In this document: positions 1,865 through 5,689 of the stretch, piece by piece | Numbering within the stretch: the stretch's first letter is position 1 | How the letters are laid out: the number at the start of each line of letters is the position of its first letter | From: a virus | Taxonomy: Duplodnaviria; Heunggongvirae; Uroviricota; Caudoviricetes | Virus record (IMG/VR): IMGVR_UViG_2648501150_000009 | Span: 1 to 5,689 of that record | Reading direction: 5' to 3' (one strand) | Length of the DNA: 5,689 bases | Program-made: the position numbers and the translations under genes | The notes under the pieces: generated by a model | The model's database searches: none | Told to the model about the DNA's origin: nothing | What the model saw: the letters and a program-made list of their open reading frames with translations, nothing else

Positions 1865-2172
1865 GCATCATTAAAGAAATGCCGGTAGAACGTGATGAAT
1901 ATGGCTGCTGGACACATCCGGAGTATGAAAAGTTTTGCGCAGGTCGTGAATATATATCCACTGAGGAATTTGACGCCTGGATGAAGGAAAATAATCTTCA
2001 GTGGACTATTCGCAGTATGGATGAAGATGATTTTAATCTGGACGCAGATGGTCCCGATATTGCCGCCTGGGAACCAGTGCGACCAGAGGGCGAAGGATGG
2101 TTTGTTGGCTCTATTCATGACACTGAAGATGGCCCAGTTTGTATCTGGCTGCGGGAGAAGGTTGCCGCATGA
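1861..2172 (+). CDS. hypothetical acidic small protein (103 aa)
   Basis: GTG at 1861 overlaps the upstream stop (GTGA) and follows GGAGGA (1849-1854, 6-nt spacer). By hand count about 25 D/E against 9 K/R. Its stop overlaps the phosphatase start (ATGA at 2169-2172). The Trp/Pro/Gly-rich C-terminal part ([17 protein letters not shown]…VCIWL) faintly recalls small phage DUF-type domains, but I cannot assign it. Confidence 0.7.
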
Positions 2173-2861
2173 ACCAGGCGCTGCATGAAGTGAATTTATA
2201 TAGCCGTATTGATGGTTCAGGCTACAGAAACATATGGGTTGTTGGTGATCTGCATGGTTGCTACACCAGACTGATGTCCGAACTCCATCGTGTGGATTTT
2301 GACCCGGCGCAGGATTTACTGATATCGGTTGGCGACCTTATCGATCGCGGCACCGAAAATGTTGAATGCCTGGAGCTATTGCAGATGCCCTGGTTTCGGT
2401 CGGTTATGGGAAACCACGAGCGATTAATGATCGATGCGTTAAGTCCCGCAGGCAATGTGAATAACTGGCTAATGAATGGCGGTCAATGGTTCTTCATGCT
2501 GGACGCTGATCGGGAAATATTAGCCAGGGCGCTGGTGGAGCTGGTAAGACGTCTTCCCTATATCATTGAGCTGAACACCGGGCATGAAACTATCGTTATA
2601 GCCCATGCCGACTATCCAGGTGGAGAGTACCAGTTCGGTAAGGATGTGTCGCTTTTTGATGTTGTCTGGTCGCGCAGTCGCGTCGGTGATTCTATAGATG
2701 GCATTGGTGGAGAAATCACAGGCGCAGATCGCTTTATCTTTGGGCACACATCGGTACGAAGACCAAAAGCATACTGGAATCAGCACTACATAGACACGGG
2801 CGCGGTTTTTTGCGGAAATCTGACGCTAATGCAGGTGAAGGGAGGGCAGCTTAAAGTCTGA
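2169..2861 (+). CDS. serine/threonine protein phosphatase, lambda PPase / PrpA-PrpB-like metallophosphoesterase (230 aa)
   Basis: Canonical PPP-family motifs are all present: GDLHG (nt 2244-2258), GDLIDRG (nt 2331-2351), GNHE (nt 2409-2420), plus HADYP, WSRSR and the C-terminal IDTGAVF. ATG 2169 follows GGGAGAAGG (2153-2161) and overlaps the upstream stop. The TTG at 2139 from the ORF track is rejected as the start. Confidence 0.93.
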
Positions 2862-2897
2862 TCAAATCATTTACGCACTCAAAATTGCATTAGAACA

Positions 2898-2926
2898 TTG
2901 ATTTTAGTTTTCTAACATATTATTTT
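2898..2926 (+). promoter_or_regulatory. candidate sigma70 promoter in the only sizeable intergenic gap (-35 TTGATT 2898-2903, 17-bp spacer, -10 TATTTT 2921-2926)
   Basis: The AT-rich 98-bp gap (2862-2959) between the phosphatase and the 331-aa CDS contains a -35/-10-like pair with 17-bp spacing. It would drive the downstream module. No convincing Rho-independent terminator hairpin precedes it. The hexamer matches are imperfect. Confidence 0.3.
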
Positions 2927-2959
2927 ACCGCTCGGAACAAAACAGAGTCGGTATGCATT

Positions 2960-3955
2960 ATGAGTGCAATAATCACCCCATATGTCGTAAATGAAACTGG
3001 TGTGGCTGTCTTTCCTGTAGATAAGCCCACCAGCAATTACATCGGCACAGGACGCCGTTTTCTTATATCCCCATTGCCGCGTGAACAGGCTGAAAACACC
3101 CCTGATGGTGTCGTTGACCTGAATTATTCACTGGTTGCCAACCAGTCACTGGCACCCTTTTTTCAAAGTGAGCGTGTATTTAACGCGTTAGGTGGTGAGG
3201 ATTCTCTCGTTCACTGGGTTAGCACCAACATTCACGATTGCCAGGCGCATGATAAGCGCGATTGCAGCCACCAGCTAACCACCCATTTCTATAACGGTTC
3301 TGCCGTTCGCCTGTGCTGGAAGCATGATGCGGAATACATGATGAAGGGATACGGCAAGCTGGAAGACCAACTGTCACTGAATCGCGCCAACTGGATTATG
3401 AACTGGGCTGCCAGCGAGTTAAAACTTCCGCCAGATCGCGATCTGAGCATGGTTGAACTCACCTTTTGGGCCATTCGCCGGAATCTTAAAGACGAACTGC
3501 CTGATGAAGCTGGTCGCATTGCATTTTGTCAGCCAAAAACTGAAATCCCTACCGGCACTCTGAAAGAGTCGGATATTACCTGGGAGCATAGTACCCGCGA
3601 GCTGGTGGATATTTCCGCAGAGCAGATCGTCAATCTGTCCGTCGATGAAGATTCTGGCCTCCTATATATGCGCCGTCCAAAAACCTTACTCGGAAAAAGC
3701 CCGGCTTATCTCCGGTTTGTGGTGTCTCGCCCGTGTGTAGGCTGCGGCGGCAAGGTTAATCACCCATTCATGTACCGCGCCCGCTCGTTAAACGAACACG
3801 ACCGCTGGGCTGTTCCTCTTTGCGATGACTGCGCCAGAAGCGCAGAAAACGATGTCCGGGCATGGGAAAAAGCACATGGCATACGCCTTTACGTAGCCGC
3901 TAACCAGCTTTTCGACTTCGCCATTGAGCGCGGAGTGATCACGTTCAATAACTGA
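2960..3955 (+). CDS. phage protein with C-terminal HNH / His-Me-finger-like zinc-binding motif, possibly DUF968 (YdfU-like) family (331 aa)
   Basis: Intact 331-codon ORF with ATG at 2960 and only a weak upstream SD. The C-terminal segment PCVGCGGKVNHPFMYRARSLNEHDRWAVPLCDDCA (nt about 3734-3832) has the CxxC…H…N…CxxC spacing of HNH/His-Me-finger nucleases. The size and context resemble DUF968 proteins of lambdoid prophages. Family assignment is from memory. Confidence 0.8.
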   Translation: MSAIITPYVVNETGVAVFPVDKPTSNYIGTGRRFLISPLPREQAENTPDGVVDLNYSLVANQSLAPFFQSERVFNALGGEDSLVHWVSTNIHDCQAHDKRDCSHQLTTHFYNGSAVRLCWKHDAEYMMKGYGKLEDQLSLNRANWIMNWAASELKLPPDRDLSMVELTFWAIRRNLKDELPDEAGRIAFCQPKTEIPTGTLKESDITWEHSTRELVDISAEQIVNLSVDEDSGLLYMRRPKTLLGKSPAYLRFVVSRPCVGCGGKVNHPFMYRARSLNEHDRWAVPLCDDCARSAENDVRAWEKAHGIRLYVAANQLFDFAIERGVITFNN

Positions 3956-3968
3956 TGGGAACAATGCA

Positions 3969-4262
3969 ATGAGTCAAGGTAATGGTGACGGAGCTGCAAA
4001 GTGCAGAATCTCCACTTGTTTGATTAATGACAAAAAAATAGAACCGTGCGCGGCGTTGGCACAATCTCTGGAGCAGGATGCTGAATACACGACGCGGAAA
4101 GGTCTGCTGAAATACAAAATCTATAACCATGAATTAATTCATTCACAAGACCTGATCATGCTGCGGTCTGGTGAATTTTCTAAATCGCCTATTCGAGTTT
4201 CATTTTGCCCATTCTGTGGTGAAAGTCTGAAAACGTGGGAAGCGGAGGCAACCAGTGAATAA
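3969..4262 (+). CDS. hypothetical small Cys-containing protein (97 aa), possible zinc ribbon
   Basis: ATG at 3969 lies 13 nt after the upstream stop, with a weak GGGA upstream. Cys pairs CRISTC near the N-terminus and CPFCG near the C-terminus. Its 3' end carries the SD and start of the next gene. Confidence 0.65.
   Translation: MSQGNGDGAAKCRISTCLINDKKIEPCAALAQSLEQDAEYTTRKGLLKYKIYNHELIHSQDLIMLRSGEFSKSPIRVSFCPFCGESLKTWEAEATSE
4244..4258 (+). repeat. 15-nt junction motif GGAGGCAACCAGTGA (SD, 6-nt spacer, GTG start overlapping a stop); identical copy at 5567..5581, variant GGAGGTAAACAGTGA at 1112..1126
   Basis: Exact 15-mer identity between 4244-4258 and 5567-5581, and 13/15 with 1112-1126. 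In each case the GTG is the downstream gene start and TGA or TAA closes the upstream gene. The motif sits in different codon phases of the upstream genes (…EAEATSE* against …RKGGNQ*). Confidence 0.8.
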
Positions 4263-4899
4263 CCGCTTTTACATGATGTGCTTGCGTGAAACTGTGGGTA
4301 ATAACGCCTCATTCCATTGCCATAACGGCAATGGTTACAGTTCTGATATCGATCGCGCTCATGTTTACACGCTGGAAGAAGCCCAAAAAGCCTGGAATTG
4401 TGGTCGAGATATCGATCAGCCTGTTTGCGCTGATAGCGTGGATGCAATGGCTGTGTGGCACGTTGATTGCCAGTACATCCCTACAGAAAGCCTGATTGAG
4501 TCAGATTGCACTGCGTATGTGGCCTACAAAAAAGGTAGCTGGAACGGCAACGATGTTTACTGGCTTCAACACGGTGGATTGCCAACCGATGACTTCAGTA
4601 AAGCGACCATCTTTTGCGTCGCCAACAAAAACGAACCAGGAATAGTTTGGTTGCCATTTTCCATTGCTGATGCAGTAAAGCGCCGGACGTTCAATATCAA
4701 TAACTTTAACCGCAGAACAATGGTTCAGGGCGCAGGTTTGGTCATGCCTGACTGGTTGAAAGAGCAGAACAGAAGAAAGAAGTCGCGAAGCGGGAAGGTG
4801 CGTAGGAATTGTCCGCATTGCGGAAAAATCACCTGGCAGTACAGCCCATATGATTTTGAAGGCTGTCGTGATTACAACTGTGAAGGATGGCGAGAATGA
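4255..4899 (+). CDS. hypothetical Cys/His-rich protein with a C-terminal zinc-ribbon-like motif (214 aa)
   Basis: GTG at 4255 follows GGAGG (4244-4248, 6-nt spacer) and overlaps the upstream stop by 8 nt. A basic stretch NRRKKSRSGKVRRN is followed by CPHCGKITWQYSPYDFEGCRDYNCEGW. An internal ATG at 4273 is an alternative start. Confidence 0.75.
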   Translation: MNNRFYMMCLRETVGNNASFHCHNGNGYSSDIDRAHVYTLEEAQKAWNCGRDIDQPVCADSVDAMAVWHVDCQYIPTESLIESDCTAYVAYKKGSWNGNDVYWLQHGGLPTDDFSKATIFCVANKNEPGIVWLPFSIADAVKRRTFNINNFNRRTMVQGAGLVMPDWLKEQNRRKKSRSGKVRRNCPHCGKITWQYSPYDFEGCRDYNCEGWRE

Positions 4900-5078
4900 C
4901 AATTGACTATCAAGAACTGCGCGAGGCAGCGGAACAGGCAACGCAAGATGAATGGGTAGCATATATTTTGCCGGGTCATAACGGCATTTATCCTGCGCGC
5001 ACGTCTGAGGGTAGGCATTGTGCGGATACTTTATTGACTGGCCTGGCGTCTGTCAGGGGCGGGAGAGCATCAACATGA
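4896..5078 (+). CDS. small ORF (60 aa), possibly the N-terminal module of an Ea22-like gene, either a separate gene or a frameshift remnant
   Basis: ATG 4896 overlaps the upstream stop (ATGA) and follows GAAGGA (4882-4887, 8-nt spacer). Its N-terminus MTIDYQELREAAEQA matches the start of the partial gene at 5578 (SEINYQALREVAERA). Its stop overlaps the start of the next CDS (ATGA at 5075-5078). Confidence 0.55.
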   Translation: MTIDYQELREAAEQATQDEWVAYILPGHNGIYPARTSEGRHCADTLLTGLASVRGGRAST

Positions 5079-5581
5079 GCATCAGAACCTACGCAGTGAA
5101 TTGCAATGACGCATGGCTAAACACCGAAGGTGATGACATCTCCGGCTCATACGTTAAGTACAAAGACCATCAGGAAGTGGTTGCCGCTCTTGAGGCCAAG
5201 TGCGCGGCGCTGGCAGCGGAGAATGCGGGAATAAAGTCTGCAATTCCAGAATCACGGGATATTGAAGATGACAATGACAATATGGATGACGTATCTCTCG
5301 CGGAAGACTTCGGGTTCAATCATGCAATAGAACGGATGAGGAGACAGATACCTGAAACACCAACCACTGATGCTTTCCTGGCTGAAGTCCGGGCGCAGGG
5401 GGTGGATGCTGCTATAGAAGCTGCAAAAAATCTGGTGGCCCAAGAATATGAGTATAAGGATTTCAAAGCGGCGCAGAGTGATTGCTGTATGTACCCTGGT
5501 TCAGACCTGGTAGGGAAGGTTGAAATGACTGAGTGGTTAGTTGACTTTGCTGCCCAGCTTCGCAAAGGAGGCAACCAGTGA
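5075..5581 (+). CDS. Ead/Ea22-like family phage protein, coiled-coil plus C-terminal module (168 aa), paralog of 341..1126
   Basis: ATG 5075 is the first ATG in the frame and follows GGGAGAG (5060-5066). It shares VAALEAKCAALAAENAGIKS, TDAFLAEVRAQGV and the tail AAQLRKGGNQ with the first Ea22-like gene. The TTG at 5018 from the ORF track is rejected as the start. Confidence 0.7.
   Translation: MSIRTYAVNCNDAWLNTEGDDISGSYVKYKDHQEVVAALEAKCAALAAENAGIKSAIPESRDIEDDNDNMDDVSLAEDFGFNHAIERMRRQIPETPTTDAFLAEVRAQGVDAAIEAAKNLVAQEYEYKDFKAAQSDCCMYPGSDLVGKVEMTEWLVDFAAQLRKGGNQ
5202..5230 (+). repeat. 29-nt near-identical core shared by the two Ea22-like genes (copy 2)
   Basis: Direct comparison with 702-730 by eye: 2 mismatches in 29 nt. 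Confidence 0.8.
5567..5581 (+). repeat. second exact copy of the 15-nt junction motif GGAGGCAACCAGTGA
   Basis: Identical to 4244-4258; forms the stop of the second Ea22-like CDS and the SD/start of the downstream gene. Confidence 0.8.
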
Positions 5582-5689
5582 GCGAAATTAATTACCAGGC
5601 ACTGCGTGAGGTGGCGGAACGTGCAATTCCAGCAATGGAACGCCTGTTAATGTTGCCAGCTGATGATGACTTGTTAAGTGAACAGGAAC
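5578..5689 (+). CDS. 5' end of a downstream CDS (partial); N-terminus resembles the 60-aa ORF at 4896
   Basis: GTG at 5578 overlaps the upstream stop (GTGA) and follows AAGGAGG (5565-5570). The frame stays open to the window end (VSEINYQALREVAERAIPAMERLLMLPADDDLLSEQE…). Confidence 0.6.
   Translation, partial: MSEINYQALREVAERAIPAMERLLMLPADDDLLSEQE

Follow-up and report, generated by a model that had tools for sequence, protein, structure and literature searches.

C1 operators are annotated upstream of lpa in P1 and ahead of upf86.8-87.4-87.6 in P7. The pdcB gene of P1, which follows phd-doc-pdcA just upstream of the lpa operator, was nonessential in a CRISPRi screen and is dispensable for lytic growth (PMC10695390). 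Its product is a DUF968 protein; a NinB/Orf-like N-terminal domain has been reported in those of Gram-positive origin (PMC4118853). Genes of the YdfU type (Qin YdfU, SfV orf45, Serratia BZS1 p62) adjoin RusA and Q in the nin region of lambdoid phages, and a search of the ydfU literature yielded nothing further on function than PMC5714182. A related HNH core occurs in Gp16 of PhiNM1 (Pfam HNHc_6), a RecA-dependent nickase of a Staphylococcus phage that is expressed early and encoded in the replication/recombination gene region. A mutant of Gp16 in the first catalytic histidine was still toxic, and zinc-site mutations relieved toxicity (PMC12817073); in this superfamily, therefore, the phenotype need not track canonical catalysis.

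The stretch of DNA analyzed here (the window, 5,689 nucleotides, JHRF01000157.1) is a whole contig of a D6-like (P1-related) E. coli phage-plasmid. It encodes a homolog of PdcB (331 aa) followed by two small cysteine-rich proteins (97 aa and 214 aa), which the initial annotation had proposed to be a defence, anti-defence or superinfection-exclusion cassette. The account favored here, a mosaic early operon with C1-type control at an intergenic gap and a His-Me finger that does not cut, is probably correct as a whole.

Gene order and a candidate operator in the intergenic gap

The initial annotation placed the three genes in a prophage, but DNA searches matched the window best to 91-97-kb plasmids and to phage D6 (orf97-100), and the element is a phage-plasmid that is not integrated. 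Identical DUF968 proteins are encoded by a 92.6-kb contig, within an array of approximately 30 genes on a single strand. The three open reading frames first reported agree with the gene calls of the source contig and with the RefSeq annotation of near-identical plasmids (Table 1). The phosphatase gene (ppp), whose product matches NCBIfam PRK11439 with an E value of 6.5e-81 that is below the cutoff of the model, lies upstream of the DUF968 gene in every D6-like locus. At the other end, the start of a 60-aa Ead/Ea22-like gene overlaps the stop codon of the 214-aa gene (ATGA), and the operon runs on beyond position 4899, its genes overlapping by 4 nt, within an array of about 30 that all point the same way. 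The phd-doc genes are located approximately 7 kb downstream, and an lpa-like gene is found elsewhere. Scans of the window against Rfam and for tRNAs returned nothing.

Table 1. Positions of genes and candidate regulatory elements in the window.
Feature	Position	Strand	Details
NinI/PrpA-like Ser/Thr phosphatase (ppp)	2169..2861	+	Pfam Metallophos; phrog_246; final gene before the gap
Palindromic operator TTAGAA-N14-TTCTAA (inverted repeat), candidate D6-type C1 repressor site	2890..2915	.	26 bp
Weak sigma-70-like promoter candidate	2898..2926	+	-35 TTGATT 2898-2903; 17-nt spacer; -10 TATTTT 2921-2926
331-aa PdcB-type DUF968 protein	2960..3955	+	Zn-binding middle module and C-terminal His-Me-finger domain
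97-aa Cys4 protein, homolog of P7 Upf87.4	3969..4262	+	phrog_4030, E 7e-41
GGAGG Shine-Dalgarno sequence for the 214-aa gene	4244..4248	+	read from sequence; within the 97-aa gene, at its 3' end
214-aa protein, homolog of P7 Upf87.6 and IME10 hkaG	4255..4899	+	GTG start; phrog_2457, E 1e-116
60-aa Ead/Ea22-like gene	4896..5078	+	source-contig gene calls; junction sequence; phrog_14804

The gap between ppp and the DUF968 gene (2862-2959, 98 nt) is the sole gap longer than 13 nt between plus-strand genes, and the regulatory region proposed for it is supported by a repeated palindrome and by sequence conservation upstream of the DUF968 gene among D6-like relatives. Six copies of the palindrome were counted in the 91-kb D6-like plasmid NZ_CP058619.1 when up to one mismatch was allowed and spacings of 10-18 were compared; every one has a spacing of 14, with zero copies at spacings 10-13 and 15-18, versus a mean of 0.23 copies (maximum 2) in shuffled sequence. 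The remaining copies adjoin ref, the lpa-like gene before the terminase genes, icd/ant, rdgC and the tRNA cluster. One diverged relative (L019) has the right operator arm only, and another (L020) has near-match arms approximately 16 nt apart. The promoter candidate of the initial annotation is present, with its -35 within the operator, but it matches just 8 of 12 positions, which is under the threshold of a 9-of-12 promoter scan that reported nothing in the gap.

Both features of C1-type control, an operator that recurs at early promoters and an encoded C1 homolog (the 345-aa repressor of the plasmid, a distant one), were found, and the gap is putatively under the control of a C1-type repressor. 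The region would represent the interior of a long, one-directional early/accessory operon in which the gap, with its operator overlapping a weak promoter, may serve as an internal control point. If the gap is such a point, the downstream genes are probably silenced by C1 in the plasmid state; release of the repressor at induction or infection would turn them on.

The DUF968 protein and its degenerate active site

HMM searches confirmed DUF968 membership of the 331-aa protein (PF06147, residues 161-325, 153.3 bits versus a cutoff of 27.8) and assigned the other two proteins to the phage families phrog_4030 and phrog_2457. The full length of the 331-aa protein is spanned by PHROG 96 (phrog_96, E 1e-103). 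The structure model is of moderate quality overall (pLDDT 64) and confident at residues 56-184 and 246-326; it includes a zinc-binding beta-beta-alpha module in the middle (residues ~94-123). The His-Me-finger domain at the C-terminus (residues ~246-326, nt 3695-3937), whose active site is degenerate, is the best-conserved portion of the protein. A NinB-like domain was considered and rejected: Pfam NinB was not matched, and the equivalent residues (185-245) are modelled at low confidence. The nearest fold is that of the RecA-dependent nuclease Ref. Sequence searches of the PDB with the protein and its family profile gave nothing useful.

Assignment of the 331-aa protein to the His-Me-finger (HNH) superfamily was borne out by the beta-beta-alpha fold and a structural CxxC...CxxC zinc site. 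One conserved four-ligand cysteine set was found in each of the three proteins, in which the initial annotation had noted paired-Cys motifs; in this one it consists of C259, C262, C288 and C291, and a second site is formed by C94, C/H103, C119 and H/C122, with two Zn predicted per monomer. The C-terminal cysteine arrangement first described therefore stands, but the histidine of its 'NH' motif (H268) does not hold up as the HNH catalytic residue: close homologs have R, T or Q in its place, and the catalytic HH of relatives aligns elsewhere.

Alignment of 47 PdcB-type and 21 YdfU-type unique sequences revealed that the canonical catalytic histidines are absent from the PdcB type. The general-base dyad, which is PHH in the 21 YdfU-type sequences, LHH in Ref and AH in Gp16, has become P-F/Y-M/I-Y in 47/47 PdcB-type sequences, that of the window included, and the metal-binding helix reads C291-A292...E296 in the window protein versus H/C-H...H in relatives. 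All four active-site histidine positions of Ref, YdfU and Gp16 are replaced, and the glycine-rich loop is deleted, in every PdcB-type sequence; neither clade varies at H280, D281 or D298. HNHc_6 is matched by the YdfU-type protein of SfV and by Gp16, and neither HNHc_6 nor RecA_dep_nuc is matched by the window protein at E <= 0.1. As judged from these alignments, the 331-aa protein belongs to a branch that has none of the canonical catalytic histidines. Their loss does not prove that all catalysis is lost. The protein keeps the zinc-stabilized beta-beta-alpha fold of phage nucleases of the Ref, YdfU and Gp16 types and, with the general-base and metal-binding histidines gone, would most likely bind DNA or recombination/replication intermediates without cutting them.

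Distribution of the three genes and alternative readings

The 97-aa protein has 59 homologs, all enterobacterial, and its conserved cysteines are C17, C27, C80 and C83. Of the cysteine pair originally read from the motif CRISTC, C17 is conserved, but C12 lies within an 11-aa insertion missing from most homologs, and the conserved partner of C17 is C27. Pfam searches with the family gave weak matches alone, to DUF6980 and DUF7835, below cutoffs. The 214-aa protein has at its C-terminus a Cys4 zinc ribbon (C186, C189, C204 and C209; residues 183-210, nt 4801-4884), which a basic linker joins to an N-terminal domain of two lobes. Its structure model is confident (pLDDT 92.7) and found no fold match in the PDB or BFVD; a test for internal duplication of the N-terminal domain was suggestive only (hhalign E 3.5e-4, probability 37%). 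The family is large (1,030 cluster representatives; clustering at 50% identity gives about 1,000) and offers no informative fusions because its longer and distant members have zero Pfam domains. Profile searches of the PDB with the 97-aa and 214-aa families detected sub-threshold likeness to zinc ribbons (eL43, E 0.11; RpoM, E 0.001 over a short motif), and nothing relevant was found in the literature on hkaG or upf87. Both are predicted to be small zinc-binding proteins, and the basic arm and zinc ribbon of the 214-aa protein suggest nucleic-acid binding.

The three genes are independently shuffled, mosaic early-operon genes and not a linked system. Across 5,426 complete E. coli genomes, full-length copies of the single genes occur in 99, 134 and 248, but the contiguous trio occurs in only 9 (12 if insertions are allowed), and the two junctions are intact in 36 and 61 genomes, the latter being that of the 97-aa and 214-aa genes. 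Among IMG/VR loci with the 214-aa gene, 1/80 has the trio. One locus (L174) encodes an identical DUF968 protein followed by other genes, and the slot after the DUF968 gene is filled variously (by ASCH, PAPS reductase, DUF1382 and Ea22 genes among many). Recombination would act at gene boundaries, moving each gene on its own.

Phage early accessory regions often encode defence-type functions, and the three genes are consecutive, on the same strand, behind a regulatory gap, with two of them translationally coupled and the trio recurring unaltered in those 9 genomes. A cassette of an active HNH nuclease with two zinc-ribbon partners is very improbable all the same, given two outcomes that the initial annotation had itself named as refuting it (the rarity of the trio relative to each gene and the missing catalytic residues), the many alternative genes after the DUF968 gene and a transcription unit that extends past 4899; no PADLOC model was matched by the three proteins or the phosphatase, and no NCBIfam model by the three. 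A narrower pairing, of the 97-aa with the 214-aa gene and without the DUF968 gene, draws on their junction: the 8-nt overlap, which in the window comes with GGAGG as originally described, recurs in 20/80 IMG/VR loci and in the 61 complete E. coli genomes, as well as in P7 and SJ46. As a dedicated functional pair they are nonetheless unlikely, since approximately 75% of 214-aa loci have no 97-aa gene, the 97-aa gene is also found without its neighbor (L013, L016-L018, L174), and homologs of the 97-aa protein are confined to Enterobacteriaceae while the 214-aa family is broad, with distant homologs in other genera that have no 97-aa neighbor (it stands alone beside xis/int in Acinetobacter, Yersinia and Pectobacterium prophages). 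Some functional link between the two may exist.

It is similarly improbable that PdcB-type DUF968 proteins still act as nucleases or nickases through H280, D281, D298 and possibly E296, perhaps activated by RecA like Ref and Gp16. The invariance of the first three residues, the fold closest to Ref, the strong conservation of the C-terminal domain and the toxicity of Gp16 lacking its first catalytic histidine favor such activity, but the four replaced histidines and the deleted loop in every PdcB-type sequence argue against it, and H280 and D281 are not a replacement set because relatives of the active type also carry them. That each gene encodes a separate host-takeover or anti-defence factor with its own host target is doubtful, although less so: a mosaic, moron-like spread through the early operons of many temperate phages and the dispensability of P1 pdcB for lytic growth (PMC10695390), the latter as expected of an accessory gene, speak for it, but the libraries searched revealed no similarity to characterized anti-defence proteins. 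The mosaic early operon with a non-cutting His-Me finger accommodates a more specific proposal, offered tentatively: the PdcB clade, confined to P1-/D6-type phage-plasmids, may be an old, strongly conserved, catalytically dead His-Me finger co-opted to bind DNA or RecA-filament intermediates without cutting. It would, for instance, modulate or antagonize host recombination or the co-resident Ref, and would be turned on by release from C1. The 214-aa protein, as a separate matter, would belong to a widespread family whose fold has no solved relative.

Comparison with P1, P7 and related phages

A false lead is thereby removed: the three are mosaic genes from the early region of a well-known lineage of phage-plasmids, common in its D6-type form in clinical E. 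coli and Salmonella, and do not amount to a novel system of defence or anti-defence. The labels of "HNH endonuclease" on PdcB-type DUF968 genes of P1-, P7- and D6-like elements are probably wrong functionally, the candidate D6-type operator set provides a testable map of an immunity regulon, and the 214-aa family is a reasonable structural and functional target, being widespread, confidently modelled and without a relative among solved structures. Overall, the findings are mosaic phage biology of the ordinary kind and add modest new detail.

Full-length homology and a common degenerate motif place the 331-aa protein in the subfamily of P1 PdcB (38% identical over residues 1-328, E 2e-70 to 1e-64), along with P7 Upf95.7 and D6 orf98 (95% identical), all of the same DUF968 layout; PdcB likewise has lost the catalytic histidines and kept the Cys4 site. 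The YdfU-type proteins have the same full-length architecture (26-31% identical over residues 1-328), with the CQ...LCWx[HC]D middle motif and the C-terminal zinc site in common, but they keep the motif PHH-x-IG[HY]G..GG.GTK.HD...PLC..[CH]H..LH, of which the window protein lacks the active-site histidines. Gp16 also matches DUF968 (29 bits, E 1e-6), but its N-terminal domain is NinB-like and its CxxC...H...CxxHH...H site is intact, in contrast to the other N-terminal domains and missing catalytic histidines of the window protein. P1 Ref (a RecA-dependent HNH nuclease, PDB 3PLW) and YbcO (DUF1364, PDB 3G27) have no match at the sequence level, and Ref, unlike the window protein, retains LHH...CKWHH.

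Gene order differs from the phd-doc-pdcA-pdcB-lpa synteny of P1: in the window and in D6, the DUF968 gene follows ppp, behind an operator of its own. The C1-controlled operons of P1 and P7 likewise have a repeated operator at early-gene promoters, and the homologs of the 97-aa and 214-aa genes in P7 lie within a predicted C1-controlled operon. A TCTAA core is common to the D6-type half-site, P1 Olpa and P7 Op(hea), but the operators of P1 are 17-bp asymmetric sequences, whereas the six candidate D6-type sites are 26-bp palindromes with a fixed 14-nt spacing.

Gene order and co-occurrence in a phage-plasmid early operon

The region belongs to a known phage-plasmid, where it forms part of a mosaic early operon of an ordinary kind. 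The window is the entire contig JHRF01000157.1 (assembly GCA_001265355.1), and every gene lies on the + strand. Its closest DNA matches are E. coli plasmids of 91-97 kb and orf97-100 of phage D6, and the pair of 97-aa and 214-aa genes is also found in phages P7 and SJ46; by these sequence matches, the element is identified as a D6-like, P1-related phage-plasmid. The initial annotation had proposed the three genes for the 331-aa DUF968, 97-aa and 214-aa proteins as a nuclease-containing accessory cassette. The sequence features it described are real, including the 8-nt overlap of the last two genes and the GGAGG at 4244-4248, but the three-gene system does not stand.

Features of the window, and the other five copies of the palindrome in plasmid NZ_CP058619.1
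Feature	Location	Strand	Remarks
Partial phrog_8805 gene	3-329, off left end	+	109 aa, function unknown
Ea22-like gene, DUF7446, DUF4752, two small genes	between phrog_8805 gene and phosphatase, in that order	+	
NinI/PrpA-like phosphatase	2169-2861	+	
Gap	2862-2959		98 nt, between phosphatase and 331-aa gene
Palindrome TTAGAA-N14-TTCTAA	2890-2915		26 bp, in gap
331-aa gene	2960-3955	+	
Second ligand set C94, C/H103, C119, H/C122	3239-3328		residues 94-123 of 331-aa protein
97-aa gene	3969-4262	+	
214-aa gene	4255-4899	+	
Three Ead/Ea22-like genes	4896-5078, 5075-5581, 5578-5689	+	after 214-aa gene
Palindrome copy	between ref and first gene of the window's operon		
Palindrome copy	upstream of small gene heading terminase operon		P1 lpa position
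Palindrome copy	upstream of icd/ant		
Palindrome copy	adjoining rdgC		
Palindrome copy	adjoining tRNA cluster		

When 5,426 complete E. coli genomes were searched by megablast, 101 carried the 331-aa gene (full-length in 99; plasmid-borne at 100 of 102 places), 367 the 97-aa gene (full-length in 134) and 279 the 214-aa gene (full-length in 248; 108 chromosomal places), whereas only 12 had at least 80% of the trio at a single place, contiguous in nine and with inserted genes in three. Probes for intact junctions matched 36 genomes for 331/97 and 61 for 97/214. The IMG/VR comparison covered 80 loci whose 214-aa gene has at least 95% identity; the 97-aa gene adjoins it in 20, a DUF968 gene lies within 4 kb in two, and the full trio is present in one. 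The 214-aa gene occurs without its partners in many lambdoid phages; in Acinetobacter, Yersinia and Pectobacterium prophages its homologs lie in the region of the early left operon, close to xis/int, and neither the 331-aa nor the 97-aa partner is nearby. The phosphatase and gap are kept upstream in 11 of 11 D6-like DUF968 loci, with differing genes downstream; at one related locus (L174), an identical DUF968 protein (100%) is followed by a 97-aa variant and then Ea22, the 214-aa gene being absent. The stop codon of the 214-aa gene overlaps the next start (ATGA), a pattern that continues downstream, and the array extends for approximately 30 genes on a 92.6-kb contig, which makes 4899 an arbitrary endpoint for the proposed cassette. 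The cassette was rejected on two outcomes that the initial annotation had itself named as refuting: the genes do not co-occur consistently, and conserved catalytic residues are missing from the 331-aa protein.

A diverged D6-like element (IMGVR_UViG_3300009011_000012) has a second, independent juxtaposition, in which a 214-aa homolog (5006-5638, 60% identical) immediately follows a DUF968 gene (protein 66% identical) without an intervening 97-aa gene. Four Ead/Ea22-like genes or fragments occur in the window's 5.7 kb (one at 341-1126, three after the 214-aa gene), several with a common N-terminal motif, (I/T)(D/N)YQxLRExAE. The 60-aa gene that begins the downstream three resembles an Ea22 N-terminal module that has become detached, suggesting that members of this family recombine often. 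In the partial phrog_8805 product, a segment rich in Ala, Gln and Asn (AATTAAVAAANSANIANQQAQRAANASAS) precedes a compact C-terminal domain.

The DUF968 protein and its neighbours

The 331-aa protein belongs to the YdfU/PdcB family over its full length (Pfam DUF968, 153 bits, residues 161-325; phrog_96 end to end); its identity is 38% with P1 PdcB and 26-31% with YdfU-type proteins of lambdoid phages. Earlier work had assigned DUF968 to the His-Me finger superfamily, in one group with DUF1364/YbcO (PMC5714182), and P1 pdcB is dispensable in lytic growth and of unknown function (PMC10695390, PMC10067587). In 68 unique family sequences taken from loci, the motif C..C...PHH.IG[HY]G..GG.GTK.HD...PLC..[CH]H..LH is present in all 21 of YdfU type. 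In all 47 of PdcB type (P1, P7, D6 and the window) the HH dyad is missing, the glycine loop is shortened, and C..C-[AQS]...[E/A/R] stands where C..HH...H would be. Alignment with Ref and PhiNM1 Gp16 shows that the zinc ligands are retained and that the absent residues are exactly those mutated as the Gp16 nuclease centre (H157, H185 and H189). H268, the "NH" histidine to which catalysis had been assigned, varies inside the PdcB clade, and the catalytic assignment is not upheld. Pfam HNHc_6 and DUF968 are cross-matched by a YdfU-type protein and Gp16; the window's protein has no HNHc_6 match. Conservation along the protein is nevertheless highest in the C-terminal domain, which argues for a retained, non-canonical role and not decay.

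A second conserved motif, C94-Q...[C/H]103...C119-W-x-[H/C]122-D, is modelled as a beta-hairpin plus helix and looks like a further zinc module. Its ligands, accompanied by invariant Q95, W120 and D123, are common to the PdcB and YdfU clades and lie outside the Pfam DUF968 model. In several lambdoid phage records (hits H57, H61, H72 and H79) the feature under the YdfU-type match is "antitermination protein Q", which could be a mislabelled DUF968 gene or a neighbouring Q gene overlapping the match.

Homologs of the 97-aa protein (phrog_4030) are confined to Enterobacteriaceae and are mostly 84-88 aa, without the window's 11-aa N-terminal insertion; C17, C27, C80 and C83 are conserved, and all zinc-ribbon-like similarities are sub-threshold. 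The 214-aa family (phrog_2457) is broad (1,030 representatives at 50% clustering, E <= 1e-3), with a basic arm preceding an invariant ribbon (C186, C189, C204, C209). No Pfam domain was found in this protein or its longer relatives, and searches of PDB and BFVD gave no fold match for its very confident model (pLDDT 92.7). A unit of approximately 80 aa may be tandemly duplicated in the N-terminal domain, whose two lobes match weakly by hhalign (E 3.5e-4).

A candidate operator in the gap

A consensus scan found no promoter in the gap, where the candidate initially placed matches 8 of 12 positions. Across D6-like relatives the sequence preceding the DUF968 gene is conserved; the palindrome in it is only partly retained where the DUF968 protein is 66% and 48% identical. 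The near-identical plasmid NZ_CP058619.1 has six copies of the palindrome at up to one mismatch (17851, 30692, 34103, 51569, 56465 and 68659), with spacing 14 every time and no copy at spacings 10-13 or 15-18; shuffled sequences averaged 0.23 copies, with two at most. The palindrome is not annotated in the records examined. The ref, lpa and icd/ant loci correspond to C1-controlled genes in P1, and NZ_CP058619.1 encodes a distant C1 homolog. The palindrome is probably the operator of a D6-type C1 repressor, which in the plasmid state would silence the DUF968 gene and those following it.

The analysis makes three additions, each modest. One is a set of sites likely to serve a repressor as operators; another is a PdcB clade that is catalytically degenerate, although its members often bear the mistaken label "HNH endonuclease"; the third is a widespread family of uncharacterised 214-aa proteins without a structural relative among solved structures. 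In P1 a C1 operator is annotated at lpa, and in P7 a C1 operator is annotated ahead of upf86.8-87.4-87.6, the operon with the 97-aa and 214-aa homologs; the palindrome has a TCTAA core in common with these operators.
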